DNA from: Elusimicrobiota bacterium
Lineage (GTDB): Bacteria; Elusimicrobiota; Elusimicrobia; Elusimicrobiales; UBA9959
Length of the DNA stretch: 50,455 nucleotides
Assembly: GCA_027340875.1 (NCBI GenBank)
Contig: DAIENX010000068.1
Location: 1-50,455, forward strand
Direction: 5' to 3'
Shown: positions 1 to 50,455 of the stretch, one piece after another
Layout of the letters: every line of letters begins with the position of its first letter
Position numbering within the stretch: position 1 is the first letter of the stretch
Translations under genes and position numbers: made by a program
Notes under the pieces: generated by a model
What the model saw: only the letters and a program-made list of their open reading frames with translations
Databases searched by the model: none
Told to the model about the DNA's origin: nothing

Positions 1-1
1 G

Positions 2-91
2 TGGTCGATTTCGCAGGCGCAGGAAGCGCGCTGGGCGAAGCGCCTATGGAAGGCCTACAAGCCTCGGGAAAAGGAGGTGGCGGCGGTTTAA
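2..91 (+). CDS. C-terminal fragment of an unknown protein truncated by the window edge (..WSISQAQEARWAKRLWKAYKPREKEVAAV*)
   Basis: Frame 2 is open from the edge to TAA at 89-91; too short to identify. Confidence 0.4.
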   Translation, partial: WSISQAQEARWAKRLWKAYKPREKEVAAV

Positions 92-150
92 ACTAGGCTG
101 CCCATGCTTCCGAATTTACACCCAGAAAATTGACATGGCCGGCCTTACCC

Positions 151-208
151 GGCCGCTCCCGTCCGCCTTCGGCGGCCGTACAACGCAGAAAATTATTTCC
201 CGCGCCCA
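151..208 (+). repeat. Left 58-bp inverted repeat arm
   Basis: GGCCGCTCCC...CGCGCCCA is the exact reverse complement of 12732-12789. Confidence 0.95.
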
Positions 209-210
209 CT

Positions 211-222
211 GCAAAGAGTTGA
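211..222 (+). repeat. 12-bp direct-repeat core GCAAAGAGTTGA (left copy)
   Basis: Identical to 12720-12731; both copies lie on the inner side of the inverted arms. Confidence 0.85.
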
Positions 223-550
223 ACCGTTATCATTACAGACTCTGCCCGCGCTCGCCTGTGGCTGCGCCACCAGCGGCGCGGGCCTGTTCCTGTTATCTAT
301 CTTAACTGACATTCCGGTGGCCGCAGTATTTATAAAAACACCGCCCCGGCGTCCGCTGCTGCGGCCGCCGCGGCGGTCTTTTCTGTTAATTATAAGCAGC
401 CACCGGGCAGAGAATGGCGAAGACCATAAGGAAAGGGCCAGGCCGGGCGCGCCTGGCTCCCGTGTGGCCGTCGCACCCGGCCTGGCCCCTGCCTCACCTG
501 ACCCCGCCCATCTATGATACGGCGTATTAACCCACCCGACGGAGAATTAT

Positions 551-587
551 ATTTATCGGAAATTTATCGGCAATTTAACGGAAATTT
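551..587 (+). repeat. Three tandem 11-bp direct repeats (ATTTATCGGAA / ATTTATCGGCA / ATTTAACGGAA) plus a partial fourth
   Basis: Read directly from the sequence; period of about one helical turn. Confidence 0.7.
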
Positions 588-612
588 TAGGCCAAAAACG
601 CCGTTTTTAACG

Positions 613-645
613 CGACACACCCTTGTCGGGTTCGTGATATATAAT
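613..645 (+). promoter_or_regulatory. PafBC/WYL-type promoter: CGACA-N6-TGTCGG-N10-TATAAT
   Basis: CGACA 613-617, TGTCGG 624-629, TATAAT 640-645; the same architecture occurs upstream of radC. Confidence 0.65.
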
Positions 646-785
646 AAATGCGTTAAGGCATTATGATAGGAGCATTACTTCGTAATGCTCCTGTGGGGTG
701 AAGCTTGCCATGTGGCATATTAAAAAGGAATATATAGTAATAAGTGTGTAAAAGTTATAGTATTACTATAATGTAGGCGCTACAC

Positions 786-814
786 TTGACAAAATTGGAT
801 TTCTCTGGTAGACT
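786..814 (+). promoter_or_regulatory. Sigma70 promoter of the hsdM operon
   Basis: TTGACA (786-791), 17-nt spacer, TAGACT (809-814) with an extended TGn motif. Confidence 0.75.
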
Positions 815-854
815 AGTAGTGTCGGCTTAGGGTTGTGCAAGGGGCTTCAAACTT

Positions 855-2339
<1,485 letters not shown>

Positions 2340-2348
2340 GGAGGGCAT

Positions 2349-3371
2349 ATGGCTACTCTTGAACAGGAAAATACTGCGCGTAATTTTTTAAAAACTGAAT
2401 TGCCAAAGTTTAGTCAATTAAATCCAAAAGACTTCGCCCGTGATTCTGAGCTCGGAACACAGTTTGGTTTTTCAGAAGGTCTCCCATACTTTGAGCGGAT
2501 AGTGAATTTGTATAAAGAACTGTCCCAAGTTGATTTGTCAGGTGTTCCCTTCTCGGCACTTGATCCCTTGGCTAAGATATTCGTGGAGGCCATAAAACTT
2601 TTTCAGAAAATTAAGGAGTTCGATCCTAAAAAATCTGCAAACCCGAACGCTGACAGGGAGGCATTGATTAATACGGCTCGCGATCAATATGACTCTCATT
2701 TTCAACGGGTCGCCCCAGTTCTTGCATATACGACCCGAAAAGGGACGAATTTTGAGGATTATGAGCGCAAAGCCAAAGTGGCGCTCGAATCGGTAGAGAA
2801 GCTGGCTCAAGAAATTTCTGAAAAAGGAAGAGCGGCTGAAGCATCGGCAGAAAAAATCCTTAATAAATTGCAGGAAGAAGCGGCTAAACTTGGCGCTGGG
2901 CAACACTCAATTAACTTCAAATTGCAGTCGGACGAACATAAGAGAGTCTCCTTTATATGGCTTGTTTTTACGTGGCTTTCTGTCGCTCTTGGCGCATTCT
3001 TGGTGTGGTATTTTTTCTTAGGGCCACAGAAAGTGATTCTGGAGAATCTAACTGCCGGACAAGCTATATACCTAGTGGCGTCACGCATAATGCTGTTTTC
3101 GGTTGTCTCATTCGTAATATATTGGGCAGCCAAGAACCATGGCGCTCACCAGCATAACTACGTAATAAATAAACATCGGCAAAACGCCTTGGCAACTTTT
3201 CAAACATTTATTGAAGCTGCTGGGTCTGACCAATCAGTAAAAAATGCTGTTCTTCTGCAGGCGGGACAAGCTATTTATGGTCAGCAGTGCACAGGATACT
3301 CCGATGGGATTTCATCTCCTGCTGCTCCGGTTAACCTGATTGAAGTCGTTAAGAATGTCGCTGAAAGATAA
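2349..3371 (+). CDS. Hypothetical coiled-coil protein with two TM helices (candidate defence membrane effector)
   Basis: 340 aa, SD GGAG, helical/coiled-coil N-terminal part, two hydrophobic segments (about aa 200-260), AT-rich. Confidence 0.75.
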   Translation: MATLEQENTARNFLKTELPKFSQLNPKDFARDSELGTQFGFSEGLPYFERIVNLYKELSQVDLSGVPFSALDPLAKIFVEAIKLFQKIKEFDPKKSANPNADREALINTARDQYDSHFQRVAPVLAYTTRKGTNFEDYERKAKVALESVEKLAQEISEKGRAAEASAEKILNKLQEEAAKLGAGQHSINFKLQSDEHKRVSFIWLVFTWLSVALGAFLVWYFFLGPQKVILENLTAGQAIYLVASRIMLFSVVSFVIYWAAKNHGAHQHNYVINKHRQNALATFQTFIEAAGSDQSVKNAVLLQAGQAIYGQQCTGYSDGISSPAAPVNLIEVVKNVAER

Positions 3372-3390
3372 TTATATAGAGGAGACATAT

Positions 3391-3537
3391 ATGTACATGG
3401 AAGATTCTGAGATACTTATCGCAGCGTCAAACCTGGCTGCGGCAACTTCGAGGCAGAGAAGTGTGAGCCCCAAAGATTTGGTGGATGAAACCATGAGAAT
3501 CTTTAAGATGCTAAAAGCTGAAATAGAAAAGATTTAG
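3391..3537 (+). CDS. Small hypothetical protein (48 aa)
   Basis: Strong SD GAGGAG at 3379-3384 before ATG 3391; fills the gap between neighbouring co-oriented genes. Confidence 0.5.
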   Translation: MYMEDSEILIAASNLAAATSRQRSVSPKDLVDETMRIFKMLKAEIEKI

Positions 3538-3545
3538 AAATTAAT

Positions 3546-4136
3546 ATGCCCTTCAAAAGCAAAGCCGAGATAGACCGCATACTGGACGCCCTGGGTGATC
3601 AGCTTGCGGCCGCGGGGAGCGAGCCGCTGGACCTGCTGGTCTGCGGCGGCTCGGCTCTCCATGCTTTGCATCTGGTAACCCGCACCACCAAGGATGTGGA
3701 TGTGGTAGCCAGAATTGAAGGCGGTAGCGGGGCTATGCACCGCCCGGATCCCTTTCCGCAGGCTCTTGCCAGTGCAATAGCCAAAGTAGCCAGGGACTTC
3801 GGGCTGAAAGATGATTGGTTCAACCCCGGCCCTGCCTCGGCGCTGGACTTTGGCCTCCCTGATGGCGTGCTTAAACGTGCCGAGGTTGCACGCTATGGTT
3901 CCCACCTTATTGTCCGGTTCTTTAGTCGGTACGACCAGATACATTTTAAGCTATACGCTGCCGTGGACCAGGGCGGCAAGCACTATGCGGATCTGTTGGC
4001 ACTTAATCCCACTGCGGAGGAATTGCTGGCTGCCGCTAAGTGGAGCATGACGCACGACGTTTCCGAGGCCTACAGAGGCGAAGTAAAAAGAATCCTGATA
4101 GGAATGGGGCACAATGATGTCGCTGAAAGATTATAG
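3546..4136 (+). CDS. DUF6036/AbiEii-like (pol-beta superfamily) nucleotidyltransferase
   Basis: hGGSAL...R-T-T-K-D-V-D motif near the N-terminus; K...D..DL C-terminal helices. Confidence 0.8.
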   Translation: MPFKSKAEIDRILDALGDQLAAAGSEPLDLLVCGGSALHALHLVTRTTKDVDVVARIEGGSGAMHRPDPFPQALASAIAKVARDFGLKDDWFNPGPASALDFGLPDGVLKRAEVARYGSHLIVRFFSRYDQIHFKLYAAVDQGGKHYADLLALNPTAEELLAAAKWSMTHDVSEAYRGEVKRILIGMGHNDVAERL

Positions 4137-5169
4137 AGAACAATTGCTTGAGCGCCTGATAAATTTTCTGTGGCGGCAATGGTCCGCTTTGGGACTGTTG
4201 GGCGAATCCGGTGGTGACGAAGATTGGGTTATAGACCCGGAGTCTCTGCTGGTGTTTTCCCTTGAGATAGGTCGTTACGAGCCTCGCCTTTTTGACGAGA
4301 TCCTTGCCTGGCTTAAGGTTAATGCCCACCTGTTGGATACCCCTAGGTTAAGGAATATTATTGAGGCCCGCGGGGCCGCCACCGCCAGGATTATAGGTGC
4401 GGCCTTGCAGTATATTCTGGATGACGGCGGAGACCCGCGCAAATGGAAGAATCTTGTAGCTTTATGCGCGAAGTTGTCTCCTCAGGATTCTGTGCGGATA
4501 GAGGCGCTGTTTAAAGATAAAACCGGCAAAGCACATCCCATGGTCTCAGGGGAAAAGGCTGACGCGGCTTTCCTTAAATTCGGTTTTAACCGTCCGGTGT
4601 TGAAAATACAGAAAGCAGGCAAGAAAGTGCCGGTGAATGCCAAGACAAATCTGCGCTTTCTTTTGCGCTCACTTTTCGGTGTTGGCGGAAAATCCGAGAT
4701 CATTCTTTACCTGCTTACGCACGACGGAGCGAGACCGAAAGAAATCTCTGATGCTATAGGCCTTTTCTGGCTCGGAGTTACTCAGACACTTATTGATCTT
4801 TCCAATTCGGGGCTGATCCTTATACGGAGCAGAGGTAAAAAGCTGGACTACTGGCTTTCCCATAAAAAGTGGTGGGAATTCATTTCCCCGTCCGGCTCAG
4901 GTGAAGATCGGCCGAAGTGGTTGGATTGGGCGGTTATCTATTCCGCTTTCGCTACCCTGTGGCAGGCCATGGAAGCTCTGGCGGATAGCGACGCTTCGGA
5001 GTACATGAAGAGTTCCAGGCTGCAGGATAGTTTGGAGCAGGTAACGGCGGAGTTTTCTCGCGCCGGCTTTGACGTGGGTAATCCGCCCGCGCCAGGTTTG
5101 CCTGCCGAGCTGCACCAGAAAGTGTCCCTGGCCTTTCTAACAAAAATCTTAGGAGATTCTAATGACTAA
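4114..5169 (+). CDS. Hypothetical protein with winged HTH; probable partner/antitoxin of the nucleotidyltransferase
   Basis: Overlaps the NTase stop; LFG..KSEIILYL....RPKEISDAIG......TQTLIDLSNSGLI resembles a wHTH. Confidence 0.65.
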   Translation: MMSLKDYREQLLERLINFLWRQWSALGLLGESGGDEDWVIDPESLLVFSLEIGRYEPRLFDEILAWLKVNAHLLDTPRLRNIIEARGAATARIIGAALQYILDDGGDPRKWKNLVALCAKLSPQDSVRIEALFKDKTGKAHPMVSGEKADAAFLKFGFNRPVLKIQKAGKKVPVNAKTNLRFLLRSLFGVGGKSEIILYLLTHDGARPKEISDAIGLFWLGVTQTLIDLSNSGLILIRSRGKKLDYWLSHKKWWEFISPSGSGEDRPKWLDWAVIYSAFATLWQAMEALADSDASEYMKSSRLQDSLEQVTAEFSRAGFDVGNPPAPGLPAELHQKVSLAFLTKILGDSND

Positions 5170-5761
5170 CCAGATAAATAGCCTGAAAATGGGGCAGAAA
5201 TTGAAGAAGACTCCTGCCGGTGAAATACCTGTGGAGTGGGAGGCGAAAGAAATTGGTGAATTGCTGGACTATGAAAGGCCAGATAAATATATTGTGAAAA
5301 ACACAGATTATTCAAGCGATCCAGCCAGTGGTATTCCTGTGTTGACCGCAAATAAGTCTTTTATTTTGGGGTACATCGATGAGGATTTTGGTGTTTGTAA
5401 GGATACTCCAGTTATAATCTTCGATGATTTCACAACAGATAGTAAATATGTGGATTTCCACTTTAAGGTTAAATCTTCTGCGATAAAAATTCTTAGGGCT
5501 AAAGCGGGCTTTGACCTGAAATATATTTTTGAGGCTATGCAGTTAATTAATTTCGCTGTTGGTGACCATAAAAGGTATTACATTTCAGAATATCAGAACA
5601 TAGTTTTGCCTGTTCCGCCACTTGCCGAGCAGAGAAAGATTGCGGAAGTCTTGTCTGCGATGGATGACGAGATTAATAAAACTTCCATTCTTATAAATGG
5701 AATGCGGTCGGTCAAAAATGGGTTAATGCGAGCTTTGCTAACTGGCAAAGTGAGAGTATAA
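5162..5761 (+). CDS. hsdS: Type I R-M specificity subunit, half-size (one TRD plus one conserved region)
   Basis: N-terminal KKTPAGEIPVEW, a single TRD, PPLAEQRKIAEVLS, canonical C-terminal LLTGKVRV; only 199 aa. Confidence 0.9.
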   Translation: MTNQINSLKMGQKLKKTPAGEIPVEWEAKEIGELLDYERPDKYIVKNTDYSSDPASGIPVLTANKSFILGYIDEDFGVCKDTPVIIFDDFTTDSKYVDFHFKVKSSAIKILRAKAGFDLKYIFEAMQLINFAVGDHKRYYISEYQNIVLPVPPLAEQRKIAEVLSAMDDEINKTSILINGMRSVKNGLMRALLTGKVRV

Positions 5762-5774
5762 ATCAGGGGGTGCT

Positions 5775-6563
5775 ATGAGCCAATATTTGAGAGATGAATC
5801 GTTGAAGTGTATTACTGTTCCAGCAGAGTCACTTCGTAAAATCAATGAGGATCTGAATGAAATCGCGAAAGCTGTGGTGGATAAACTCCCAGAGAATGAA
5901 CGCGCAAATCATCAGCTGATTCCGATATACGTTATTCGCTTCGATGGGAAGGGCTTTAGGCTTCACGACTTTGAACAGGTGATGCGATATTTTACTGATG
6001 CGAATGTGGTTGAACGCTTGGCTATCGCTTTTCAGTCGCCAAATAATATAGCGCAGGCAAATTTTGCGGGGAAACGTATTGAAATCCATCTTGACACTAA
6101 AAATCCAGAAAACTGCTCGCTCCTTGTTGAGGATGATGACCGGGACTGGGTGGATTTTGTGTTTATGAAAATCCGGGAAAGGCTTTTAAGATACTCAAAC
6201 CGAAATTGGATTGTTCGAAGCCAGGGCGCTGGTGTTGTGATTCAGCTTTTGGGCGTTGGTGTTGGCTTTTTGTTTAGCATTTGGGCATCAATAATTATTT
6301 CGCCTGCGTTGCGTATTGAAAACGCAATGCTGTTCTCATTTATTGCGGCATTTTTGCTGTTCTCGAATATGTGGACTTTTATGCTGAATGGTATAGGGAA
6401 AATTGCTGATACCATTTGGCCCAATGTTTCCTTTCGGAAGCCTTCGGGTCTCCATTGGTTAGTTCAGGGGTTAATTGCTACAGCGGCCTTCTCATTGATA
6501 ACAGTACTGTTCCTAAAACTCTTTGCATATCTTGGTAGTATTTTTAAGCCTTTGTTGAACTAA
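5775..6563 (+). CDS. Hypothetical membrane protein (soluble N-domain plus about 3 C-terminal TM helices)
   Basis: 262 aa, SD AGGGGG, three hydrophobic stretches in the last ~110 aa. Confidence 0.75.
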   Translation: MSQYLRDESLKCITVPAESLRKINEDLNEIAKAVVDKLPENERANHQLIPIYVIRFDGKGFRLHDFEQVMRYFTDANVVERLAIAFQSPNNIAQANFAGKRIEIHLDTKNPENCSLLVEDDDRDWVDFVFMKIRERLLRYSNRNWIVRSQGAGVVIQLLGVGVGFLFSIWASIIISPALRIENAMLFSFIAAFLLFSNMWTFMLNGIGKIADTIWPNVSFRKPSGLHWLVQGLIATAAFSLITVLFLKLFAYLGSIFKPLLN

Positions 6564-6592
6564 CTGCATAGGAGTCTGTTGACTTCGAATTT

Positions 6593-7357
6593 ATGAGTTT
6601 TTTCCTGGATTGTGAGTCTGGTGAAAGTGCCATTGAGACGCTGTGTAATGGCTTTTCCTGCTCAAAAGAGGCGTTAACCGGCGTGCTGTCTTCCATTGAT
6701 ATTGATGATATTTATAGAAAGCACGCGGATGAGATAAACGTTCCCGCAGAGGAGTATTTGTACAAGCATACGGTTGATGAGCTTGGCCCCCACAAACTCC
6801 TGGCAAGCGTATGTTGGTTTCATCTTACTCGCACGATGCCTAGCAATCACTTCCGCGGTGGGGTTGTGCCTCTTGGGCAATCGCTGGATACGGTTTGGGA
6901 TATGATGCTGAGCCTCCAGCGGGACAAAACGATTCGTGACAGATTATCTAAAATGCGGAAATCTGGAGTGAATAATTGGTTGTTTGATTTAAAATCGAAA
7001 GATCCGCTTCATTGGGGGCCATACGGCATTCTGGTTAAAGATGTGGCGTTCTGTGCCAGGAAGTTGGGGCAGCATGATTACTTGGGAATGCCAGAAATAA
7101 TAGAAGACATTTGTAACGGCTATAAAGAACAATACGGGGGATCAATATTGGAAACCTATTGTGATGCATTGATCCCTAAAATCGTTAAGTTTAAAAGTGA
7201 TGTTCGATTGGATTCGGGATGTGTCGAGGCCGCGGTATCGTATGTTTATACCTACATACGAAAGCAGCCTACAGCCCGTTGGTCTGTGACCTGCTTTGAT
7301 GGCGGCGGCGTTGCGATATCTTCAAATGATATTTTGTCGGTTATCAACGTGAAATAG
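6593..7357 (+). CDS. Hypothetical soluble protein (254 aa)
   Basis: Co-oriented ORF filling the operon; conserved-looking CWFHLTR, WGPYG and PEIIEDI motifs. Confidence 0.75.
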   Translation: MSFFLDCESGESAIETLCNGFSCSKEALTGVLSSIDIDDIYRKHADEINVPAEEYLYKHTVDELGPHKLLASVCWFHLTRTMPSNHFRGGVVPLGQSLDTVWDMMLSLQRDKTIRDRLSKMRKSGVNNWLFDLKSKDPLHWGPYGILVKDVAFCARKLGQHDYLGMPEIIEDICNGYKEQYGGSILETYCDALIPKIVKFKSDVRLDSGCVEAAVSYVYTYIRKQPTARWSVTCFDGGGVAISSNDILSVINVK

Positions 7358-7381
7358 TTCTTGGTGTTTTCTGGAGAAATA

Positions 7382-8251
7382 ATGGATTTCATTGTGAGCA
7401 ATTGGCTGGCATGGGTCACGGCCTTAGGTGGCTGGGTGATTGGTGTTGTTAGTGATTTGGGCAAAGAACATTGGCGACGGCAGCGGGATATCAAAGAGGC
7501 TCACGCGAAAACCATACAAAAGGAAATTCTTGAGCCGATCTATGAGTATCTCAAAGCGTTCTATTTGCCTGTATCCAGATTGATGGAGTCCCCCATAACG
7601 GTGTCACCGGAAAATATAACCAAAAATCCGTCAAATATTACTGAGGACGCCTATGCTGGAACTCGCTTTGTTGTTTGTCCCAGAGTTGCAGAAAAACCTA
7701 CAGGGAAACTGTTGCAATCAGATTATTGGCACGAATCGGAAGGGTTTAAGCGGTACTATGCTGATGCAAAGGACAACCATTACGCGGAATTGCTCACGAG
7801 GTGGGAAGCGTTTCGAGAAAAGTTTGAGGGAATGCAGGAAAAGTCTTTGGGGTATACTGCGAATCTTGTCTCCCAGTTAAACGCCGACCTTAAAATGGAG
7901 CCATTTTCTCCAATGGGCCTTCCCAAGACTCCTTGGGCAAGTTATGAAAAGATCGCCCTCATAATCTTTAAGCGGCATTTAGGTATAGGTGCTGAGGGAA
8001 TAAGGTTTGATGAAAGCTGGGGGGTTAGCCTGCGAACGAGCATGTCACAGGAAGAAGTTCTTAAGTGTGTTTCCACTCCTGACGCAAAGAAAGCCTTGGA
8101 GATAATAAATAATATCCCGCACAAACATGAAGCCGTTGATGAAATTAAACTTTTAAGCAAGCGTCTGGAACAAGAGGCGGATAAGCTGCTGCAAGACTTT
8201 CGATTCGAGATTTCGAAAACCCCTAAAGCGGTAGGTTGCAAACTCATATGA
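7382..8251 (+). CDS. Hypothetical protein with an N-terminal membrane anchor
   Basis: SD GGAG then ATG 7382; hydrophobic first ~25 aa; stop overlaps the hsdR start (ATGA). Confidence 0.7.
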   Translation: MDFIVSNWLAWVTALGGWVIGVVSDLGKEHWRRQRDIKEAHAKTIQKEILEPIYEYLKAFYLPVSRLMESPITVSPENITKNPSNITEDAYAGTRFVVCPRVAEKPTGKLLQSDYWHESEGFKRYYADAKDNHYAELLTRWEAFREKFEGMQEKSLGYTANLVSQLNADLKMEPFSPMGLPKTPWASYEKIALIIFKRHLGIGAEGIRFDESWGVSLRTSMSQEEVLKCVSTPDAKKALEIINNIPHKHEAVDEIKLLSKRLEQEADKLLQDFRFEISKTPKAVGCKLI

Positions 8252-11200
8252 CCACACCTCGATTCAACGAAGATACTCTTTCTGAGAAGCCTGCTATCGA
8301 GCAACTTGTACGGATGGGCTACTCCTTCATCCCCGGAGAGAAGCTTGATCCGCAGGAAACCGAGGACGCGGAACGCAGTTCGCGCCGCGAGGTGATCCTG
8401 GTCGAGCGTCTGCACCGCAAACTTAAGGAGCTTAACCCCGAGGCCGGGGAGATCGCCATAGAGAAGGCCATAAGGCAGATAACAAACATACAGGGAACCA
8501 GCCTTATGGACGAGAACCGCGAGTTCCACAAGGATCTGGTGGCCAATATCTCTATCGACCAGGAGAGCGGTGCGGGCCGCAGGTCGGTTACTATCCGCTT
8601 CGTGGATTTTGACAAGCCGGAGAATAACGAGTTCCTTGTAGTCAACCAGTTCTGGATCAAAGGCCCCAAATTCCCTGACCGGCCCGATATCGTAATCTTT
8701 GTGAACGGCATCCCGCTGGCTGTTATCGAATGCAAAAGCCCGGTGGCCAGGGAAACCGGCGTAGGTGACGCGATAAAACAGCTCTGCCGCTATCAGCGCG
8801 AGATCCCGGCGCTCTTCCGCACCAACCAGATACTGCTGGGTGTGAATCTGCTAGGCGCGAAATACGGCGCTATCGGCGCGGACTACGATAATTACCACGA
8901 ATGGAAGGCCAAGCCGGAAGAGAAACTGCCTGTTCTCACAAAACATCCCACCGTGCTGGAGATGAAGTCCCTTGGCCTTCTCGAAGAAAAAGATCTGCCC
9001 GCCACGCCGGCCCCGCAGGATGTGGCTATAGCTGCGCTGTTCAATAAACGCAATTTCCTGGACATTATCCGGAACTTCACCGTTTTTGAAAGAGGTGACG
9101 GCAAGGTGAGAAAGAAGATCTGCCGCTACCAACAGTTTACCGCTGTGCAGAAACTGGCCGCGCGTGTGCTTGGCGAAAAAGAGAAGAAAGGCATAATCTG
9201 GCACTGGCAGGGTTCTGGTAAATCTTTGACCATGCTATTTGCCGCGCTTAAGCTGCGCCGCGAAGAGGCCAAGCTCAAGAACCCTTACTTCGTGGTAGTC
9301 ACCGACCGCACCGATCTGGATAAACAGATAGCCGGCACTTTCCATGATTGCGGTTTCCCCAATCCGGTCCGTGCCGAGAGCGGGCAGGACCTTTACCGCA
9401 TGCTTTCCGAGGGCGTAGGCCGCACCATAATGACCACGGTGCAGAAGTTCAGGTATCCCCCGGAGAAACCTCTATCCAACGCCGATAATATAATCGTGCT
9501 TACAGACGAGGCTCACCGAACACAGTACGGCAATTTCGCCTTTAACTTGCGCAAAGCCCTGCCCAATGCTGCTTTCTTCGCTTTCACCGGTACCCCGCTG
9601 GATAAAGAAGACCGCAATACCTATCGTCTTTTCAGCCCTCCGAACGAAACCTATATGCACCGCTACGGCATTATGGAGGCCGAAGCGGACGGCGCAACCA
9701 AACCGATAAAGTACATGAGCCGGCTGCCTTCGCTGCACCTTGTTGGCGGGTCGATAGATTCGCTGCTGGCCGGCTTGTTCCCGGATAAAGACAAAGCGGA
9801 GTTGGCGAAAATTAAGAAGCAGTACGCCAGCATGGAGGTGCTTGCCGGCGCGCCGCCCAGGATAGAGCGTGTGGCCATGGATATCGTGGAGCATTATCAC
9901 CAGGCCATCCGTCCCAACGGTCTAAAGGCCATGATAGTCGCCAAGGACAGGGCTTCGGTGGATATTTACAAAAGAGCCATGGATAAGCTTATCCCGCCAG
10001 AAGCTTCCGCCGTGGTGATGACTACCAATGACCGCGAAGATCCCGCGGATTGGAAAGAAAAGTATTATCTCTCAAGCCGCGACGAGGAAATCTTGAAAGA
10101 GCGTTTCAAGGACCCCAAAGATCCGCTGACTTTCCTCATAGTCTGCGACAAACTGCTAACGGGTTTCGACGCGCCGGTGCTGCAGGTGATGTACCTGGAC
10201 CAGCGGCTTATCGAGCATAACCTGCTGCAAGCCGTGGCCCGTACCAACCGCGTTTATCCCTGCAAGAATTACGGCCTTGTGGTGGATTATGTCGGCCTCG
10301 GCGCCGAATTAGCCGGCGCTTTAAAGAAGTTCAGCGCGGATGACCTTGCCGGTCTGTTCCGGACCGACGATGTGGAGCGGGAACTGGTTCAACTGGCGCT
10401 GCACCACAAGGCTGCTATGAAGTTCTTCGCCGGGGTTTCTTTCAGCGATAAGCCTGTGGCGATAATACAGAAATGCCTTGAGATATTGCGCCCGCCGGCA
10501 GTCAGGGGTGACTTCGACAAGATCTTCCGCGACATGGTTAAAAGCATGGACTTTCTCATGCCGGACCTGCGGGTGGAACCGTTCCTGAAGGATTTTAAGT
10601 TCCTCGGAGCGGTCCGCGAAGGGGCGAAGAACCTGTACCGCGATGAGCGTCTTAAATCTGAGGACCTGAGCGCAAAGGTGGAGGCGTTGATACAGGCCCA
10701 TATAGCCGCGGAAAAGATAGAGGAATTGTTGAAGCCGCTCACTATCACTGCCCCTGACTTTGCGAAGCAACTTGAGGCCAAGGGGTCCGACAAGGCAAAG
10801 GCCGTGCACCTGGAATATGCCTTGCGTGACACACTGCATGGTGCGGCGGCCGAGAACCCAGTGTTTTACGGGACTTTGCAGGAACAGCTGGAGGATGTTA
10901 TCGCCGCCAACAAGCAGGCGCGGGTTGATGACGCCCAGCTTCTGCTTTCGCTAATGCAGATAAAGCAGGCCGAAGAGCATAAAGACGAAGCGGCCAGAAA
11001 GCTCGGGCTTTCCGACGCCCGGGAATTCGCTTTCTTCGGACTTATAGACAGCTCGGGAGATATGCCGGCCCTAAAAAAAGAGGAACGCGCTGGCCTTGTT
11101 AAAGATATCATCGCTCTTCTAGAAGAACGCGCCGTGGCCGAGTGGACGGAGCGGGAAGACGTGCAGAAAGAGATGAGGCGCGAGATAAAGAGGTTGCTGC

Positions 11201-11283
11201 GGCGCAAGGGTTGCGATGAGGAAAAGCTGCCTGCGCTTACGCGGGAATTAATGGAACTGGCCCAGCAATGGATTAAGCGCTAA
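8248..11283 (+). CDS. hsdR: Type I R-M restriction (nuclease/translocase) subunit
   Basis: RPD...IECK nuclease motif, QGSGKS Walker A, DEAH, FTGTP, LLTGFDAP, QAVARTNR. Confidence 0.97.
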   Translation: MTTPRFNEDTLSEKPAIEQLVRMGYSFIPGEKLDPQETEDAERSSRREVILVERLHRKLKELNPEAGEIAIEKAIRQITNIQGTSLMDENREFHKDLVANISIDQESGAGRRSVTIRFVDFDKPENNEFLVVNQFWIKGPKFPDRPDIVIFVNGIPLAVIECKSPVARETGVGDAIKQLCRYQREIPALFRTNQILLGVNLLGAKYGAIGADYDNYHEWKAKPEEKLPVLTKHPTVLEMKSLGLLEEKDLPATPAPQDVAIAALFNKRNFLDIIRNFTVFERGDGKVRKKICRYQQFTAVQKLAARVLGEKEKKGIIWHWQGSGKSLTMLFAALKLRREEAKLKNPYFVVVTDRTDLDKQIAGTFHDCGFPNPVRAESGQDLYRMLSEGVGRTIMTTVQKFRYPPEKPLSNADNIIVLTDEAHRTQYGNFAFNLRKALPNAAFFAFTGTPLDKEDRNTYRLFSPPNETYMHRYGIMEAEADGATKPIKYMSRLPSLHLVGGSIDSLLAGLFPDKDKAELAKIKKQYASMEVLAGAPPRIERVAMDIVEHYHQAIRPNGLKAMIVAKDRASVDIYKRAMDKLIPPEASAVVMTTNDREDPADWKEKYYLSSRDEEILKERFKDPKDPLTFLIVCDKLLTGFDAPVLQVMYLDQRLIEHNLLQAVARTNRVYPCKNYGLVVDYVGLGAELAGALKKFSADDLAGLFRTDDVERELVQLALHHKAAMKFFAGVSFSDKPVAIIQKCLEILRPPAVRGDFDKIFRDMVKSMDFLMPDLRVEPFLKDFKFLGAVREGAKNLYRDERLKSEDLSAKVEALIQAHIAAEKIEELLKPLTITAPDFAKQLEAKGSDKAKAVHLEYALRDTLHGAAAENPVFYGTLQEQLEDVIAANKQARVDDAQLLLSLMQIKQAEEHKDEAARKLGLSDAREFAFFGLIDSSGDMPALKKEERAGLVKDIIALLEERAVAEWTEREDVQKEMRREIKRLLRRKGCDEEKLPALTRELMELAQQWIKR

Positions 11284-11284
11284 T

Positions 11285-12019
11285 ATGCCTACAGCTGTCG
11301 CTGAAAAAATAGCATTTTCATTGTTCCAGTCTGCCGGGAGCAAGACCATTTCTTTGCGCATAAACCGGGACGGTTCAGTGACTGTTCGTGCGCCCAGGCA
11401 TATATCGGAAGACGATGTGGCGGAATTCGTTTCCAGGCGCGCGTGCTGGATAGTGGAGAAACAAAAATATTTTGAACGGCTTTCGCAGGTATATCCTCCC
11501 AAGGAGTTTAAGAACGGGGAATCATTTGAGTTCCTGGGGAGAAATCTCAGGCTCAAATTGTTCCGTGCCGCAGGGCGAAAGGACACGCGATGTGAAGTCA
11601 CCGATGGGCGGCTTAAACTGTTTCTGGATGGCCAGACGGGGAAGGAATTAAAGACCGTTGCCGCCAGTGCTATCCGCAATCTGTATTCCAGGCATACGGC
11701 CTTGCGCGCGAGGGCCTTTGTCCGCAAGCACGCCGCCTCTTTGGCGATTAAGCCGGGTCGTATATTGATCGTAGATGTAAAAAAGCGATGGGGAAGTTGT
11801 GCGCGCAACGGGGATGTGCGGCTTAACTGGCGCATTTCCATGATGCCGCCTGCGGTTATCGAATATATCATCGTACATGAACTGTGCCATTTGAAGGTTA
11901 ATTCACATGCGCCAAAATTCTGGAACATTCTTAAGTCGATTCTTCCGGATTATGAAAACCGGCGCGCATGGCTGCGCCGTCATGGCCCGGCGGCTCTTCT
12001 TGTTTCTGATTGGGGGTAA
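11285..12019 (+). CDS. YgjP/DUF45 (M48-like, SprT-family) zinc metallohydrolase, commonly found after hsdR
   Basis: RWGSC, LNWR, YIIVHELCHL (HExxH), HAPKFW. Confidence 0.92.
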   Translation: MPTAVAEKIAFSLFQSAGSKTISLRINRDGSVTVRAPRHISEDDVAEFVSRRACWIVEKQKYFERLSQVYPPKEFKNGESFEFLGRNLRLKLFRAAGRKDTRCEVTDGRLKLFLDGQTGKELKTVAASAIRNLYSRHTALRARAFVRKHAASLAIKPGRILIVDVKKRWGSCARNGDVRLNWRISMMPPAVIEYIIVHELCHLKVNSHAPKFWNILKSILPDYENRRAWLRRHGPAALLVSDWG

Positions 12020-12023
12020 CGGT

Positions 12024-12731
12024 ATGGACTCAAACAAAGGGATCTCCAAACTGAATGGTTTGGAGAATGACAGGTTTCAGGAGGGGCTTCTTAAATATCC
12101 AGACGGTTTTACTTTGGTGGATGATATACTCCAGTCCTTATCGCACGGGTTTCTTGGTGAAGGCCATGATGAAAATCGGCCCTTTTTGGCTTTTTACGCC
12201 CAGGCCTGTGCAGATTTGCAGTTGGCTGTATTGTCTACGCTCAGACAGCACGATGTCCAATCATGTCTTATGCTACGTCATGCGCTTGAATCCGTAGGTT
12301 TGGCAGCCTATGCCACGGTATTTAAATCGAGCGCTGATGGGAACGAGGTCGTGGCAGCATTCGGCGATAAGGATAAAGTGTTTAAATGGATAGAGGCAGG
12401 GTTCCCGGAGGATTCCCAAAAACTCAAGGTTCTAAAGAAAAAAATTAATGACAACTTTGCGCATTCAAATATCCTTACAGCCGCTACTCGACTAAGTGAA
12501 GTAGGGGGCAAACTGAATCTTCACTTCTTTGATACAAATAGTTCGAGACTTATGGGATCCAGATTGTATGTTATCGCTGAAATAGGCTGGCTTGCTATGG
12601 ACTTGCTTGAGAAGGCGGTCAAAAAGGCGAATAATGGAATTACTGTGCAGTCTGGGATGATTGCGCGTCTAAATGACTATTCAACGCAGATTGATAAAGT
12701 GTTTGCCGAACTAAAAACGGCAAAGAGTTGA
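12024..12731 (+). CDS. Hypothetical helical protein, possibly HEPN-like (DUF5677-type)
   Basis: LRHALES and NDNFAHSN motifs resemble R..lE/H-containing HEPN-like proteins; its stop codon lies within the 12-bp core. Confidence 0.6.
   Translation: MDSNKGISKLNGLENDRFQEGLLKYPDGFTLVDDILQSLSHGFLGEGHDENRPFLAFYAQACADLQLAVLSTLRQHDVQSCLMLRHALESVGLAAYATVFKSSADGNEVVAAFGDKDKVFKWIEAGFPEDSQKLKVLKKKINDNFAHSNILTAATRLSEVGGKLNLHFFDTNSSRLMGSRLYVIAEIGWLAMDLLEKAVKKANNGITVQSGMIARLNDYSTQIDKVFAELKTAKS
12720..12731 (+). repeat. 12-bp direct-repeat core GCAAAGAGTTGA (right copy)
   Basis: Identical to 211-222; directly followed by the right inverted arm. Confidence 0.85.
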
Positions 12732-12789
12732 TGGGCGCGGGAAATAATTTTCTGCGTTGTACGGCCGCCGAAGGCGGACGGGAGCGGCC
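12732..12789 (-). repeat. Right 58-bp inverted repeat arm
   Basis: Exact reverse complement of 151-208. Confidence 0.95.
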
Positions 12790-13045
12790 CGGACGGCCCT
12801 ATTGGGTACCGGCCGGCCGCGCACAGGGGGTGTTAATAAGTGCGGGACTCCGCTTGCTGGAGCAAGTGCGAAGGCGCGAAGTGCCGAGCCTTGCGAACCC
12901 TCCTTCTCGCGGCAAGGAGCAGTGCGGGGCCGCGAAGTGGCCACGCCTGCGACGACATCTCGCGGATAAGATCCGCCTACCGCTTTCAATGGCGGTAATT
13001 ACAAGATAACCTCGGGATGCTGCGCAAAGTAGCCTGTAATTTCAC

Positions 13046-13061
13046 CCTGATAGGCCCGCCA
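13046..13061 (+). other. Probable attR: duplicated 3' end of a tRNA (CCTGA-TAGGCCC-G-CCA)
   Basis: Fits T-stem 3' strand, 7-nt acceptor strand, discriminator and CCA; a terminator follows about 20 nt later; coincides with the compositional boundary. Confidence 0.55.
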
Positions 13062-13081
13062 GAAATTTAGTCCGGCAGCAG

Positions 13082-13107
13082 AAAGCTCCCCTCCCGGGGA
13101 GCTTTTT
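13082..13107 (+). terminator. Rho-independent terminator
   Basis: AAAGCTCCCC-TCCC-GGGGAGCTTTTT. Confidence 0.8.
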
Positions 13108-13155: not shown

Positions 13156-13470
13156 ATGGGAAAAGCCAAAAAGACCATAGGCGCGGGACTGGCGGTAGCG
13201 GCCATAGCCGCGGCCGCCGTGTATTTCCTCACCGGCAAGCGCGGCCGGGAGAACCGGGAGAAGATCGCCGTCTGGACGCTGGACATGAAGGCGGAAGTGC
13301 TGCGCAAAATGAAGCAGCTCGAGATCCTGAACAAGGAAGCCTACTACGCCCTGGTGGACGCCGTGGCGGTGCGCTACGAGCGCGTCGGCCGCGCCACGAA
13401 GGACGAGGTCGCCCACCTGGCCCACGAGCTGAAGGGCGCCTGGAAGCACATAGGCAGCCAGCTGAAATAA
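13156..13470 (+). CDS. Small hypothetical protein with N-terminal membrane anchor (YtxH-like)
   Basis: SD AGGAGG; hydrophobic GAGLAVAAIAAAAVYFL followed by helical region. Confidence 0.75.
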   Translation: MGKAKKTIGAGLAVAAIAAAAVYFLTGKRGRENREKIAVWTLDMKAEVLRKMKQLEILNKEAYYALVDAVAVRYERVGRATKDEVAHLAHELKGAWKHIGSQLK

Positions 13471-13477
13471 CCCGCCG

Positions 13478-14113
13478 ATGGAAGGGCTCCAGGAGATCTA
13501 CGGGCCGGAGTTCTTCCGGGAGTGGGGGCCGGCCAACAGGGACTACGTGCTCTCGGCCGGTCTAGTGGCCGACGCCGTCTACCGCGTGTTCCGCCCGCGC
13601 AGCCTGGCCGACCTCGGCTGCGGCTGCGGCATCTACAGCCATCTTTTCCGGGAGAAAGGGCTGAAGGTCCTTTCGATAGACGGGGTCACCCCGCCGCGCG
13701 AGCATTCCTACCCGGTGGAGATAGTCAACCGCGACCTTACGCTTCCCATCAGCAACGAGTGGGGCAGGTTCGACCTGGCGCTGTGCCTGGAGGTGGCGGA
13801 ACACATACCCGAGGAGCACTCCGAGACCTTCCTGCGCAACCTGATGGGCTTCAGCGACCGCCTGCTCATTTCCGCCGCGCCGCCCGGCCAGGGCGGGCAT
13901 CACCACGTCAACGAGCAGCCCCGGCGGTACTGGGCGGACCGCCTGGCCAGGCTGGGCTACGCCTACAACCGCAAGGCCTCCGGCCTGATCATGAAGTCCG
14001 TCGAGGACTGTCCTCCCCCCAACCTCTGGATGGTCTGCCACATAGGCGTCTACGACAGGGCTACGGACCCCAAGCAGCTCAGCCACGGCCTGCCGTTCTC
14101 GGTGCGGGCCTGA
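13478..14113 (+). CDS. Class I SAM-dependent methyltransferase
   Basis: DLGCGCG motif I, FDLALCLEVAEHI, SAAPPGQGGHHHVNEQ. Confidence 0.9.
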   Translation: MEGLQEIYGPEFFREWGPANRDYVLSAGLVADAVYRVFRPRSLADLGCGCGIYSHLFREKGLKVLSIDGVTPPREHSYPVEIVNRDLTLPISNEWGRFDLALCLEVAEHIPEEHSETFLRNLMGFSDRLLISAAPPGQGGHHHVNEQPRRYWADRLARLGYAYNRKASGLIMKSVEDCPPPNLWMVCHIGVYDRATDPKQLSHGLPFSVRA

Positions 14114-43753: not shown

Positions 43754-43790
43754 AGCCTAGCAGGCGAACCCGACAAGGATATGTCGGGTT
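43754..43790 (-). promoter_or_regulatory. PafBC/WYL-type promoter facing radC: palindrome plus TGTCGG-N10-TAGGCT
   Basis: Palindrome AACCCGACA-N6-TGTCGGGTT (43767-43790); on the minus strand TGTCGG (43775-43770), 10 nt, TAGGCT (43759-43754). Confidence 0.65.
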
Positions 43791-47318: not shown

Positions 47319-50300
47319 ATTACCGCCATTTTACCGGCCGCGCTTCCCATGTTCGAGGTCCTCACGACATAGAGGTATACTCCGCTGGCGGCTTTCCCGC
47401 CGCTGGAAACCCGCCCGTCCCAGGTGCCCACGTTCATGCTGTCCACGCCGTTGGACCGGTCCAGGACGCGGACCAGCGCGCCGGAAACGTCGTATATGTA
47501 TATCCGCACTCCCGTGGCACCGGGATGTATGTTGGATATTTTCATGGGACCGCGATCCATACGGCACGGGTTCGGGTACACTTTTACATGGTCATTGCCG
47601 AGCACTTCGGAATCGACATAACGCAGCGAATATATGGAGAAGTGCGCGACTTCCGCCTGTACACTGTTCAATGCCGGATCGCGGGTCACCCCCTCGGAAA
47701 CCAGCACCCACCTTCCCAAAGCTTCGTTCAGCCAGTAAAGGCCGACCAGTCCCTCGTTCACGTTCGTGCCGTCCACTATTCCGTTATTGTCCGCGTCGGG
47801 GTAGAACATCTTCACCTTGACCGGGACATTGAAAGACGATATCGCCCCTCCTGAAAGGGCTCTCGCGCTGAACTCCCGCTCCAGCTTAAGCCCGGTGAAG
47901 GCCAGCGAGTCGCCGCCGGCCGCCGAGGCCGTTCTGGAAGCGGGCACGGTGGTGGAGATTATCAGCGTCGCCACCGGGACCGCGCCTGGCGGGACTATCA
48001 CGGTGACTATCCCGCTGTCGACCACCACGCCCCCGGACAGAGCGCTCACGGTGGTATCCATGTAGAACGTGGACCCTGACAGGATGGCGGAGAGCGGATT
48101 TCCCGCGGCATCCGGGGATACCAGCGAGAAAGAGACCGTCCCGGTGGAATAGGAGGGCTCTATAAAGAACTCTCCCGTCCAGGCCGAGCCGGATACATGG
48201 GAAAGCTGCGCTTCCTTCCTGATGCCGCCGGGGAAATCCACATATAGCCGTGGGGGCGAAGGCAGGGGATTAGCCTCGTTTATGGTCAAATTGAACGTCA
48301 GAGGACCGGACGGGGCCGGGAGAGGAGAGGTCACCTGTATGACGGCGGACGGAGAGGTCACGTCCGGGACCTGTCCGTCCGAACACGAGAAATAAGAGGG
48401 GAGCCCGCTGTTCGGATACGCCATGACGCAGAAATAGTAGGCGGTCCCTTCCGCAAGGCCGAGGCCGGGCAGGGTAACGGACGTGGAAAGACCGTTGCTG
48501 GTCCACGGAACGAGATCAGTGGTGCCCGGCGCTGTCCCGACCGCGTACATATAGCGATTTATCCCGCGGGGATGCGAAGAGGCGGCCCAGTTCGCGGACA
48601 ACGAAGAGAGCGAAGCGTAATAGTCGATATCCGCGCCGGTCCCGTCCCTGACCTCGGAGATGAACTGCGCCCGCACTGAATCCATCAGCTGTCCGTCGGA
48701 AGAGAGCACCGAGGACTGCAGGCCCGCGTTATTCCCAGCTTTGACGGAGAAATAATAAGTGGTCCCGTCCACCAGTGAAAGGCCGGATCTCGAGACCGAG
48801 GTGCTGACGCCGTTATCCGTCCAGTCGACGAGGTCCACAGCCCCCGCGGTGGTACCAATGGCGTACCAGTACCTGGATATCCCGCTCTGCGCGTCGGAGG
48901 AAAGGTCCCAGTTCGCGGAAAGCGTGTCAATGCTGGTGGAGCAGCTTTCGTCCGCGCCCAGTCCGTCATGGACGTACGTGACCGGGGCCGGAGGCGTAGC
49001 GTCCACCAGCTGGCCGTCGGAGTTAACGGCGCCGGACTGCAGACCCGCGTTGTTCTCCGCCTTGACGGTGAAATAATACACCTGCCCGTCCGTTAGCGAC
49101 AGGCCGGTACTGATAACCGACCGGCCGATGGAATTATCCGTCCAGCCGACCACGTCAGTGCCGCCAACGGTGGTTCCTATGGCGTACCAGTACTTGGCGA
49201 TGCCGCTCTCCGCGTCCGCGGCAGCCGTCCAGTTAGCCGACAGCTGGCTGAGCGAGCCCGCATAGACCGCGTCTGCGCCGGTACCGTCATTGACGGCGCC
49301 CGGCGCGCCTGGCGCCGTGGTGTCAGCCGTCTGACCGTTGGAATTGGCCGCCGCGGACTGCAGGCCTACGCCGTTCTCAGCCTTAACTGTGAAGTAATAG
49401 ACCTGTCCGTTCGTCAGCGTCAGGCCTGTCTTCGTAACGGAAGTATTGATCCCGTTATCGGTCCAGCCGAGCACCTCCGTACCGCCAACGGTAGTACCGA
49501 TAGCGTACCAGTACTTCGCCACCCCGCTCTGCGCGTCAGAGGAGGCGGTCCAGTTAGCCTGCAGCAGGGTGACGGAAGCCGTGTATGAGATATCGACTCC
49601 GGCGCCGTCGTTCACCGCGCCCGGAACGGACGGCGCCGACGCGTCCGCCATCTGACCGTTGGAATTAACGGCGCCGGACTGCAAACCCGCGTTGTTCTCC
49701 GCCTTGACGCTGAAGTAATACACCTGCCCGTCCGTCAGCGTAAGACCGGTCTTCGTTACGAACAGAACGGCGCCGTTGTCGGTCCAGCCGACCACATCGG
49801 TGCCGCCCGCTGTCGTCCCTATAGCGTACCAATACTTCGCGATACCGCTCTCCGCGTCCGCGGCAGCCGTCCAGTTAGCCTGCAGCTGGCTGCCGGACGT
49901 GGTATAGCTGATATCCGCGCCGGTTCCATCATTGACCGCTCCAGCAGGAGACGGCGCGGATATATCTATAATCTGGCCGTTGGAATTGACGGCTCCGGAC
50001 TGCAGCCCGGAACCGTTCTCCGCCTTGACCGTGAAATAATATGCCTGACCGTTGGTCAGCGTAAGCCCGGTCTTCGTAACGGACAGGGCGGCCCCGTTGT
50101 CGGTCCAGCCGGCCACGTCGGTGCCGCCCACGGTGGTTCCTATAGCGTACCAGTACCGCGCGATGCCGCTCTCCGCGTCCGCGGCAGCCGTCCAGTTAGC
50201 CGACAGCTGGCTGAGCGAGCCCGCATAGACCGCGTCTGCGCCGGTACCGTCATTGACGGCGCCCGGCGCGCCTGGCGCCGTGGTGTCCGCCGTCTGACCG

Positions 50301-50455
50301 TTGGAATTGACCACCGCGGACTGCAGGCCTACGCCGTTCTCAGCCTTAACTGTGAAGTAATAGACCTGTCCGCTCGTCAGCGTCAGGCCTGTCTTCGTAA
50401 CGGAAGTATTGATCCCGTTATCGGTCCAGCCGAGCACCTCCGTACCGCCAACGGT
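47312..50455 (-). CDS. Large FN3-like repeat surface protein with C-terminal FlgD-Ig/T9SS-type sorting domain (5' end truncated)
   Basis: About 107-aa repeats (L.ANW, SGIA.YWYAIGT, YYF.VKA.N..GL.S), C-terminal KVYPNP...IYD..G..VR...WDG...ASGVYLY; frame is open to the window edge. Confidence 0.9.
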   Translation of the reverse strand, partial: TVGGTEVLGWTDNGINTSVTKTGLTLTSGQVYYFTVKAENGVGLQSAVVNSNGQTADTTAPGAPGAVNDGTGADAVYAGSLSQLSANWTAAADAESGIARYWYAIGTTVGGTDVAGWTDNGAALSVTKTGLTLTNGQAYYFTVKAENGSGLQSGAVNSNGQIIDISAPSPAGAVNDGTGADISYTTSGSQLQANWTAAADAESGIAKYWYAIGTTAGGTDVVGWTDNGAVLFVTKTGLTLTDGQVYYFSVKAENNAGLQSGAVNSNGQMADASAPSVPGAVNDGAGVDISYTASVTLLQANWTASSDAQSGVAKYWYAIGTTVGGTEVLGWTDNGINTSVTKTGLTLTNGQVYYFTVKAENGVGLQSAAANSNGQTADTTAPGAPGAVNDGTGADAVYAGSLSQLSANWTAAADAESGIAKYWYAIGTTVGGTDVVGWTDNSIGRSVISTGLSLTDGQVYYFTVKAENNAGLQSGAVNSDGQLVDATPPAPVTYVHDGLGADESCSTSIDTLSANWDLSSDAQSGISRYWYAIGTTAGAVDLVDWTDNGVSTSVSRSGLSLVDGTTYYFSVKAGNNAGLQSSVLSSDGQLMDSVRAQFISEVRDGTGADIDYYASLSSLSANWAASSHPRGINRYMYAVGTAPGTTDLVPWTSNGLSTSVTLPGLGLAEGTAYYFCVMAYPNSGLPSYFSCSDGQVPDVTSPSAVIQVTSPLPAPSGPLTFNLTINEANPLPSPPRLYVDFPGGIRKEAQLSHVSGSAWTGEFFIEPSYSTGTVSFSLVSPDAAGNPLSAILSGSTFYMDTTVSALSGGVVVDSGIVTVIVPPGAVPVATLIISTTVPASRTASAAGGDSLAFTGLKLEREFSARALSGGAISSFNVPVKVKMFYPDADNNGIVDGTNVNEGLVGLYWLNEALGRWVLVSEGVTRDPALNSVQAEVAHFSIYSLRYVDSEVLGNDHVKVYPNPCRMDRGPMKISNIHPGATGVRIYIYDVSGALVRVLDRSNGVDSMNVGTWDGRVSSGGKAASGVYLYVVRTSNMGSAAGKMAVIW
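49197..49492. repeat. Near-identical intragenic duplication (other copy 50160-50455, offset 963 bp)
   Basis: About four mismatches over ~296 bp by manual comparison. Confidence 0.85.

Follow-up and report, generated by a model that had tools for sequence, protein, structure and literature searches.

Described systems and the locus analysed

Serine integrases are commonly presented as enzymes that act on one attP and one attB, with a separate directionality factor. Islander islands are reportedly cargo islands that target tRNA genes. Folded single-stranded DNA has a role in integron attC and HUH (IS200/IS605, IS91) systems, a possible parallel to the elements considered here. We analysed 50,455 nt from an Elusimicrobiota bacterium (the window; positions 1 to 50,455 of contig DAIENX010000068.1, assembly GCA_027340875.1), in which type I restriction-modification (R-M) genes lie between inverted arms. 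We put at about 70% the probability that these genes and arms form the cargo module of an integrative island that depends on a large serine recombinase (LSR). This copy may have recombined through a second, spare attP of the island, and that spare site may allow a single-stranded copy to fold back on itself. Contigs of the source assembly are labelled C, stretches or loci of relatives L and sequencing runs X; the window is the start of C78. The source genome measures 2.8 Mb, with an estimated contamination of 5.5%.

Phage-type large serine integrases (A118/LI, Bxb1 and phiC31) resemble the island enzymes in their Resolvase, Recombinase and zinc-ribbon domains, their two-base crossover and the 5-bp shift of the distal motif between attP and attB, as given in parts of PMC3783163. 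In contrast to these, the islands place attP inside the 3′ end of the integrase gene, target tRNA and tmRNA 3′ ends, and keep a second, inverted attP within a repeat of 290–580 bp; the single attP with a separate directionality factor is not what they show. Archaeal suicidal tyrosine integrases (SSV1, pTN3 and pT26-2) also have an att site in the integrase gene, which is split by tRNA integration. In the cited sections of a 2021 review (PMC8371274), the intact integrase gene may serve directionality control, and self-disrupting recombinases are called exclusive to archaea. The islands differ from the SSV1 type in using a serine enzyme, in occurring in bacterial records, in losing only a tail of 15–20 residues and in carrying a spare intact gene end in cis.

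DIRS-1 is similar in having a site-specific recombinase and an internal region complementary to both termini, equivalent to an inverted circle junction (excerpts of PMC7192593). The likeness is a works-like analogy. The islands have a serine recombinase, are bacterial, and carry repeats of 130–450 bp per arm, against an internal complementary region (ICR) of 88 bp in DIRS-1. No reverse transcriptase, RNase H or tyrosine recombinase was found in the window cargo; the cargo of relatives was inspected as open reading frames (ORFs) only. Tycheposons integrate at tRNA genes with restoration of the 3′ end and carry variable defence cargo, and a minority use LSRs (bioRxiv 2020.12.28.424599, in part). 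Unlike these, the islands have an inverted-repeat layout, which does not appear in the cited parts of that source, and lack conserved replication or packaging genes in the elements examined. No published description of the two-inverted-attP layout, the site anatomy or the fold-back was found in the literature searched, subscription journals being outside its coverage. A large survey of LSRs (PMC10083194) does not use the terms 'tRNA', 'inverted repeat' or 'C-terminal' in its main text.

Layout of the island family

The preliminary description of the window had proposed a mobile cargo module with an enzyme encoded outside the arms, and the relatives bear this out, with different cargo between the same arms. 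Right-end homologues occur in 23 of 24 genomes of the genus and in none of 16 genomes of other families, and the same counts were obtained with the left end. Inverted arms surround unrelated cargo in 17 of the 18 stretches fetched, which were chosen for paired arm matches, and complete arms in these stretches measure 293–448 bp and are 81–99% identical. The same genome contains a further island of ~25 kb on C11, which has another type I R-M set, related arms and no 12-bp core of the kind seen in the window.

The usual layout in relatives is host DNA, a, cargo, a′, b′, LSR gene, b and tRNA 3′ end, primes marking inverted copies. The second inverted pair, b′/b (~134 bp), brackets the LSR gene, with b overlapping the 3′ end of that gene and abutting the 3′ end of the tRNA. 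In a circle, the two outer ends would meet in a junction (attP), and the internal a′b′ sequence is its reverse complement. Judged from sequence, the a′b′ junction is an intact, inverted attP, and the predicted circle would hold two attP copies.

LSR matches were retrieved in 39 of 43 genus genomes, and the LSRs of relatives contain the domains PF00239, PF07508 and PF13408 (resolvase, recombinase and zinc ribbon). A tRNA or tmRNA was present at the LSR 3′ end in 63 of 80 species-genome loci, as counted from the table, and most of the other 17 stop at a contig edge. The targets include tRNA-Asp, -Glu, -His and -Ser and tmRNA. Rfam searches of both arms and two LSR loci returned tRNAs only. Close LSR relatives come from records titled Elusimicrobia or Elusimicrobiales, and the two-repeat layout also occurs in records titled Saccharibacteria, other Patescibacteria, Gammaproteobacteria and Bdellovibrionales.

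Two other readings of the islands were rejected. A preference for terminators was dropped after a tRNA was found at the other end. A DDE transposon with terminal inverted repeats does not fit either: the neighbours of the outer tips are tRNA trailers or the LSR module, and the Pfam scan of the cargo detected no transposase between the arms, in agreement with the preliminary description.

The two cargo ends are of distinct types, L and R, and their orientation is largely constant. The L end faces host DNA in 54 of 56 cases and the R end faces the promoter side of the LSR (promoter-side b) in 22 of 26 classifiable cases, in a tally of 149 ends in which LSR-centred fetching favoured R ends; 66 of the ends had insufficient flank and three belonged to neither type. 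ORF inspection revealed no conserved directionality-factor gene beside the LSRs of subfamily A, while the subfamily-B LSR on C112 has a helix-turn-helix (HTH) gene upstream.

This second subfamily (C11:41923–67848, C112:24341–27622, L054 and L055) has a different LSR, the upstream HTH gene and the same double-repeat layout. Its target is the 5′ end of a gene that reads as miaB. L054/L055 hold two second-subfamily elements in tandem, with the end-to-end junction intact.

Attachment sites and the split integrase gene

Identity between the island ends stops at a 5-base core, usually GGCGG. A TTCGAA-like motif was placed 16 nt from this core in arm a and 11 nt from it in the T-loop of the tRNA at 30 of 36 loci, the tRNA side being anchored by construction and the six other loci being unplaceable. 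As placed, this offset matches the 5-bp displacement of the distal motif between attP and attB of serine integrases in the cited parts of PMC3783163.

The attP is located within the 3′ end of the LSR gene. In the reading frame of the LSR, the sequence of the internal copy includes the last ~45 LSR codons and, at 37 of 42 loci, passes the core into a conserved in-frame tail of 14–19 residues. The integrated LSR gene instead runs into variable text antisense to the tRNA. On this reading of the frames, integration swaps the true C-terminal tail of the LSR for tRNA-antisense text and leaves the tail in arm a. Natural full-length LSR genes are present in L144 and L197. An AlphaFold2 model of the full-length L144 LSR (29 sequences) reached a mean pLDDT of 63.7 and a pTM of 0.32, with residues 454–507 below 50, so that the packing of the tail cannot be interpreted from it.

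One LSR, in L147:9590–11560, is 93–94% identical to tRNA-Ser-type enzymes over its first two thirds and 87% identical to the tRNA-Glu type over its last third. This chimeric gene lies between tRNA-Ser and tRNA-Glu, and such chimeras may be one way in which specificity changes.

The arms of the window

Positions 151–208 of the window are the reverse complement of 12732–12789 at 58 of 58 positions, as first described, and at 60 of 61 across 148–208. The right arm is really ~326 bp long (a′, 12732–13057, minus strand), not 58 bp. Its outer tip is an attP-type half-site, and over the outer 98 bp the arm shares 98% identity with the internal arm of L135. By alignment with relatives, the window arms are the inner ends of inverted repeats of ~330 bp.

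The left arm is short because the end of an IS256-family element occupies positions 1–140 (plus strand). This is the right end of the element with the 3′ end of its gene, inserted in the left arm, and the contig begins inside it. What remains of left arm a, of the L type, is its inner 68 bp (141–208, plus strand), including the perfect 58-bp arm at 151–208; relatives align from 141 onward. The weaker similarity reported farther out, at 137–150, takes in four bases that belong to the insertion sequence (IS). Window 1–141 is shared with C105, which has a 436-aa transposase ORF at 51–1361, and with C110; the family name was read from the sequence rather than from a profile match. An 8-bp target duplication pairs C105 with C110. 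The IS end in the window is therefore another junction, with its left flank outside the assembly. Beside the IS256 left end, C105:1419–1490 contains a 60–70-nt repeat, copies of which lie on at least 20 contigs of the genome.

The outer end of the right arm has the anatomy described above. It contains an orphan LSR C-terminal tail (WRAYQGEITGYFAQHPEVIL-stop; 12999–13061, minus strand), the same motif being found in the internal copy of 37 of the 42 LSR loci tested. From the end of identity and the symmetry of the motifs, the probable crossover dinucleotide is CC at 13056–13057 (plus strand), directly preceding the tRNA end GCCA.

The host junction and the history of this copy

The R end of the window faces the host side, unlike the usual polarity. 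Beyond 13056–13057 follow the displaced tRNA 3′ end (GCCA), a tRNA-Asp-type trailer and a terminator-like hairpin (13058–13107, plus strand), and then a YtxH-like host gene outside the element (13156–13470, plus strand). The empty target is seen in L079 and L092, where tRNA-Asp, trailer and YtxH-like gene are contiguous, and L090 has an empty tRNA-Asp where L043/L044 have an occupied site. Several other relatives have no tRNA-Asp before the YtxH-like gene, and L077, the closest relative of the right flank, has no tRNA there. The orientation of the tRNA-Asp gene relative to the YtxH-like gene also varies, pointing away from it in some relatives and toward it in others (L080, L085, L086 and L090 versus L079 and L092).

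On C44, a promoter-side b lies behind a tRNA-Asp. Both C44, behind its tRNA-Asp (93.6% over 141 bp), and window 12961–13058 (98%) match the intact internal site of L135, and the two matches abut at the core. This suggests that the two halves of one spare attP now lie apart, at 13057 and on C44, and that the spare site recombines. This copy would have recombined with tRNA-Asp through the spare (internal) attP, or through an equivalent double flip. Later, IS256 would have hit the left arm; the LSR module is missing from the assembly. A tRNA joined at the promoter-side repeat was also found in L147, L179 and C39. Other unusual products are an LSR between two tRNA-His genes (C39), cargo that lacks the LSR module (L072) and cargo in flipped orientation (L194 and L226); all of these, the promoter-side joins included, may be mis-joins of short reads. 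The C39 product, at 6003–10408, holds the LSR module between inverted copies of tRNA-His and an upstream host gene (1.46 kb, 90.5% identical), so that either both att sites were used on two alleles or the contig is an assembly chimera.

L135, the closest att match, sits at tRNA-Glu(CTC). The island could accordingly have been integrated at tRNA-Glu(CTC) before its spare attP recombined with the tRNA-Asp of the same chromosome, leaving a host trailer on each side of the cargo and a tRNA on each side of the LSR. The genome does have, on C22, a remnant of b at tRNA-Glu and, on C84, an a end, and comparable products exist as LSRs between two tRNAs (L147 and C39) and LSR-less cargo beside a tRNA (L072). 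However, the C22 b matches the C44 b at 98 of 123 positions and the C84 a matches the window arm at 107 of 137, below the 88–100% usual within one element. C22 and C84 therefore look like a separate element, and we regard this two-step history as improbable.

Least probable of all the alternatives is that the pair arose from a faulty assembly, or that a dispersed repeat happens to be present twice. In favour are the repeat in which the contig begins, 140 bp from the left arm, the several arm paralogues of the genome and the estimated contamination given above. Yet long contigs that reach the right arm contain the cargo in independent runs, an X3 contig spans 12990–13221 over the host junction (X3 may be the source sample of the window and is not independent), and the paired layout recurs across phyla. 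The cargo was also recovered in contigs of three other studies, with 31 differences over ~12.3 kb in X5, 101 over a 7.5-kb contig in X7 and patchier coverage in X8. All three had zero depth over 13273–13746, in the host flank, which indicates that the island stands in other contexts there.

Role of the second attachment site

For the family as a whole, the purpose of the spare site that we lean towards, at a little under even odds, is a fold-back. In a single-stranded copy, a would pair with a′ and b with b′, forming a continuous stem. The internal copy would serve as template for the circle junction that is missing, in the way of the ICR of DIRS retrotransposons. The outcome would be a circle with a full-length integrase and no need for an excisionase, and the arms would be kept near-identical. 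Such a fold-back would explain the presence of arms on both modules, their near-identity, the sharp inner ends and the retained polarity.

Consistent with this, inner boundaries are sharp and the L ends keep their host-facing polarity. Members outside Elusimicrobia have no 12-bp core of the window kind, and mini-hairpins are found in its place; paired, these give a four-way junction in all three of the non-Elusimicrobia elements folded. Both inner ends of L199, L204, L209, L192 and L194 have small hairpins with three-base loops; beyond these the repeat continues for ~8 bp, and the orientation of the loop varies between elements.

A different use of the same parts is possible but doubtful. Recombination of b′ with b would invert the LSR in place and join it to the tail in the internal arm, and the full-length integrase would then excise the island via attL and attR. 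This fits the last codons and tail carried in frame by the internal copy, L144/L068, where terminal b is joined to an R-type arm and the gene is full-length, and the promoter-side b at a tRNA in C44, L147 and L179. An intact integrase acting as directionality factor has a counterpart in archaeal suicidal integrases (PMC8371274, cited sections). However, a flip followed by excision and re-integration would scramble the polarity of the ends, yet L ends face the host and R ends the promoter-side b in the large majorities reported above. Nor does such a switch explain why arm a extends 160–450 bp past the 60-bp tail, or why it flanks the cargo on both sides. Some other purpose for the spare site is unlikely.

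Several points weigh against our reading of the copy and of the family. The link between C44 and the window is a sequence match, not a contig or reads. The window contains no LSR, and the two subfamily-A LSRs of the assembly belong to other tRNA sites. Neither a free circle nor an intact junction of terminal b with the L arm was found among the contigs. All records are short-read assemblies, and the rare flipped layouts may be mis-joins; the L147 LSR is a Ser/Glu chimera, and the host arms of C39 are only 90.5% alike. The fetching bias in the R-end polarity counts belongs here too. The inner ends of Elusimicrobia (window, L037 and L052) do not fold into a neat four-way junction. In six of eight elements the arms differ at recurring positions, 39–78 from the inner end, so that copying was not uniform. 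Searches of phage, plasmid and viral-contig collections with the arm gave no match and no carrier, and no helper for the production or transfer of single strands was identified. The spare site is used much less often than the terminal one, a disparity for which both the fold-back and an inversion of the LSR gene must account.

Inner ends and the 12-bp core

The 12-mer GCAAAGAGTTGA stands in direct orientation at 211–222 and 12720–12731, as reported, with no third copy in the genome. Under random sequence, the arms would be expected ~1.5e-26 times and the 12-mer near both inner ends 2.4e-5 times; these expectations do not apply here because both inner ends are conserved family sequence. The L-type inner end of the window (209–222, plus strand) has the 12-mer as the commonest L variant, found in 33 of 106 distinct L ends. 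At the R-type inner end (12720–12731, plus strand) the same 12-mer is a minor variant (3 of 39 distinct R ends), the commonest R variant being different. As L- and R-end variants share the 12-mer, the two ends are related; an exact core, however, is not required. The 12-mer is repeated exactly in only one of 26 paired inner ends, that of the window, with 2–10 of 12 matching positions in the others; one of the 26 pairs spans two elements arranged in tandem. The 12-mer is a motif conserved at the inner boundary and not the crossover.

These results bear on the original model, in which an enzyme acting in trans placed the cargo in a 14-nt hairpin loop through the 12-bp direct core, a process likened to integron attC and HUH systems although it matched none of their standard sites. 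The exact core of the window agrees with it. L and R inner ends are related, matching at 9–10 of 12 positions in L052, L258 and L281, and exchange of cargo at inner ends is possible. We nevertheless consider the model very unlikely. Exact cores are confined to one pair in 26 and are absent from non-Elusimicrobia members. Conserved element sequence runs inward past both cores, so these are not the cargo boundaries. The predicted empty arm-core-arm site was absent from all 43 genus genomes and from JGI metagenome contigs, where the L-end motif alone retrieved 102 stretches, although long palindromes assemble badly. Of 22 joints in contigs of four runs, the 15 listed include none that matches the predicted empty site or circle junction. 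The adjacent enzyme is an LSR and not an HUH protein or integron integrase, the arms have no Rfam match, and the crossover lies at the outer tip of the arm (13056–13057) rather than in a loop. Folded single-stranded DNA may still have a role, in a structure other than a hairpin loop.

Inward of the L-type 12-mer, positions 223–540 (plus strand) form a conserved, hairpin-rich, non-coding leader within the L end, with 79–89% identity in relatives and no Rfam match at gathering score. A 26-nt inverted match of 88% connects 609–634, in the island leader, with a distant site at 43765–43790. In L015:1350–1730 (minus strand) and L211:9640–10020, tRNA-His flank and truncated arm are identical, but the inner end that follows is of the R type in one assembly and of the L type in the other. 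The difference could be an inversion polymorphism of the cargo or an alternative resolution of the repeat.

Cargo genes

The cargo has a low GC content and comprises 11 ORFs. Four have clear families (HsdM, HsdS, HsdR and a YgjP-like protein), five are without Pfam match and two have weak ones. The earlier label of a whole defence operon is borne out only for the type I R-M genes and YgjP; none of the seven other ORFs reached a curated cut-off in PADLOC or NCBIfam.

By sequence, all components of a type I R-M system are present. The first gene encodes the methyltransferase HsdM (855–2339; PF02384, E 2.7e-108, and PF12161; PADLOC MTase_I); like all cargo ORFs described here, it is on the plus strand. 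It is followed by a 340-aa ORF without a confident family in Pfam, PADLOC and NCBIfam scans (2349–3371). Next is a pair formed by a 196-aa ORF, with a weak match to the DUF6036 nucleotidyltransferase family (PF19502, E 0.0086, below cut-off), and a 351-aa ORF (3546–5169); a comparison of this pair with AbiE would be a guess. HsdS is half-size, with one target-recognition domain (5162–5761; PF01420, E 7e-9; PADLOC Specificity_I). Three low-GC ORFs of 262, 254 and 296 aa at 5775–8251 belong to no family in Pfam and NCBIfam scans, and the atlas neighbours of the 254-aa ORF share no common Pfam family. The restriction subunit HsdR (8236–11283; PF04313, PF18766 and PF11867; PADLOC REase_I) precedes a YgjP-like metallopeptidase (11285–12019; PF01863, E 5.7e-54). 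The last cargo ORF (11907–12731) ends on the TGA of the 12-mer, so that the right core indeed provides its stop within the R inner end. It is DUF5677/DUF6988-like as a lead only, these families being found on 10–48% of the members of its nearest clusters.

Far from the island, positions 48620–50449 consist of five tandem copies of a 321-bp unit, 65–86% alike, probably a repeat protein.

Significance

The island family departs from the pattern of one attP with a directionality factor and from that of self-splitting recombinases confined to archaea. The Elusimicrobia LSR and att pairs for tRNA-Asp, -Glu, -His and -Ser and tmRNA are a set for studying how specificity changes. LSRs that target tRNA ends may serve as integration tools. 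As the att sites are short and defined, the exit of a tail-less integrase is directly testable in Escherichia coli. We tentatively propose that defence islands across phyla mobilise without an excisionase, through a two-loop dumbbell of single-stranded DNA with an attP stem, in which a junction templated by the internal inverted copy, at the DNA level a counterpart to the DIRS ICR, would restore the split integrase gene. The spare site may also recombine with a second tRNA, shuffling modules and rearranging chromosomes, and the window adds evidence that this site is used. The family is common in uncultured bacteria, where it carries defence genes between hosts.

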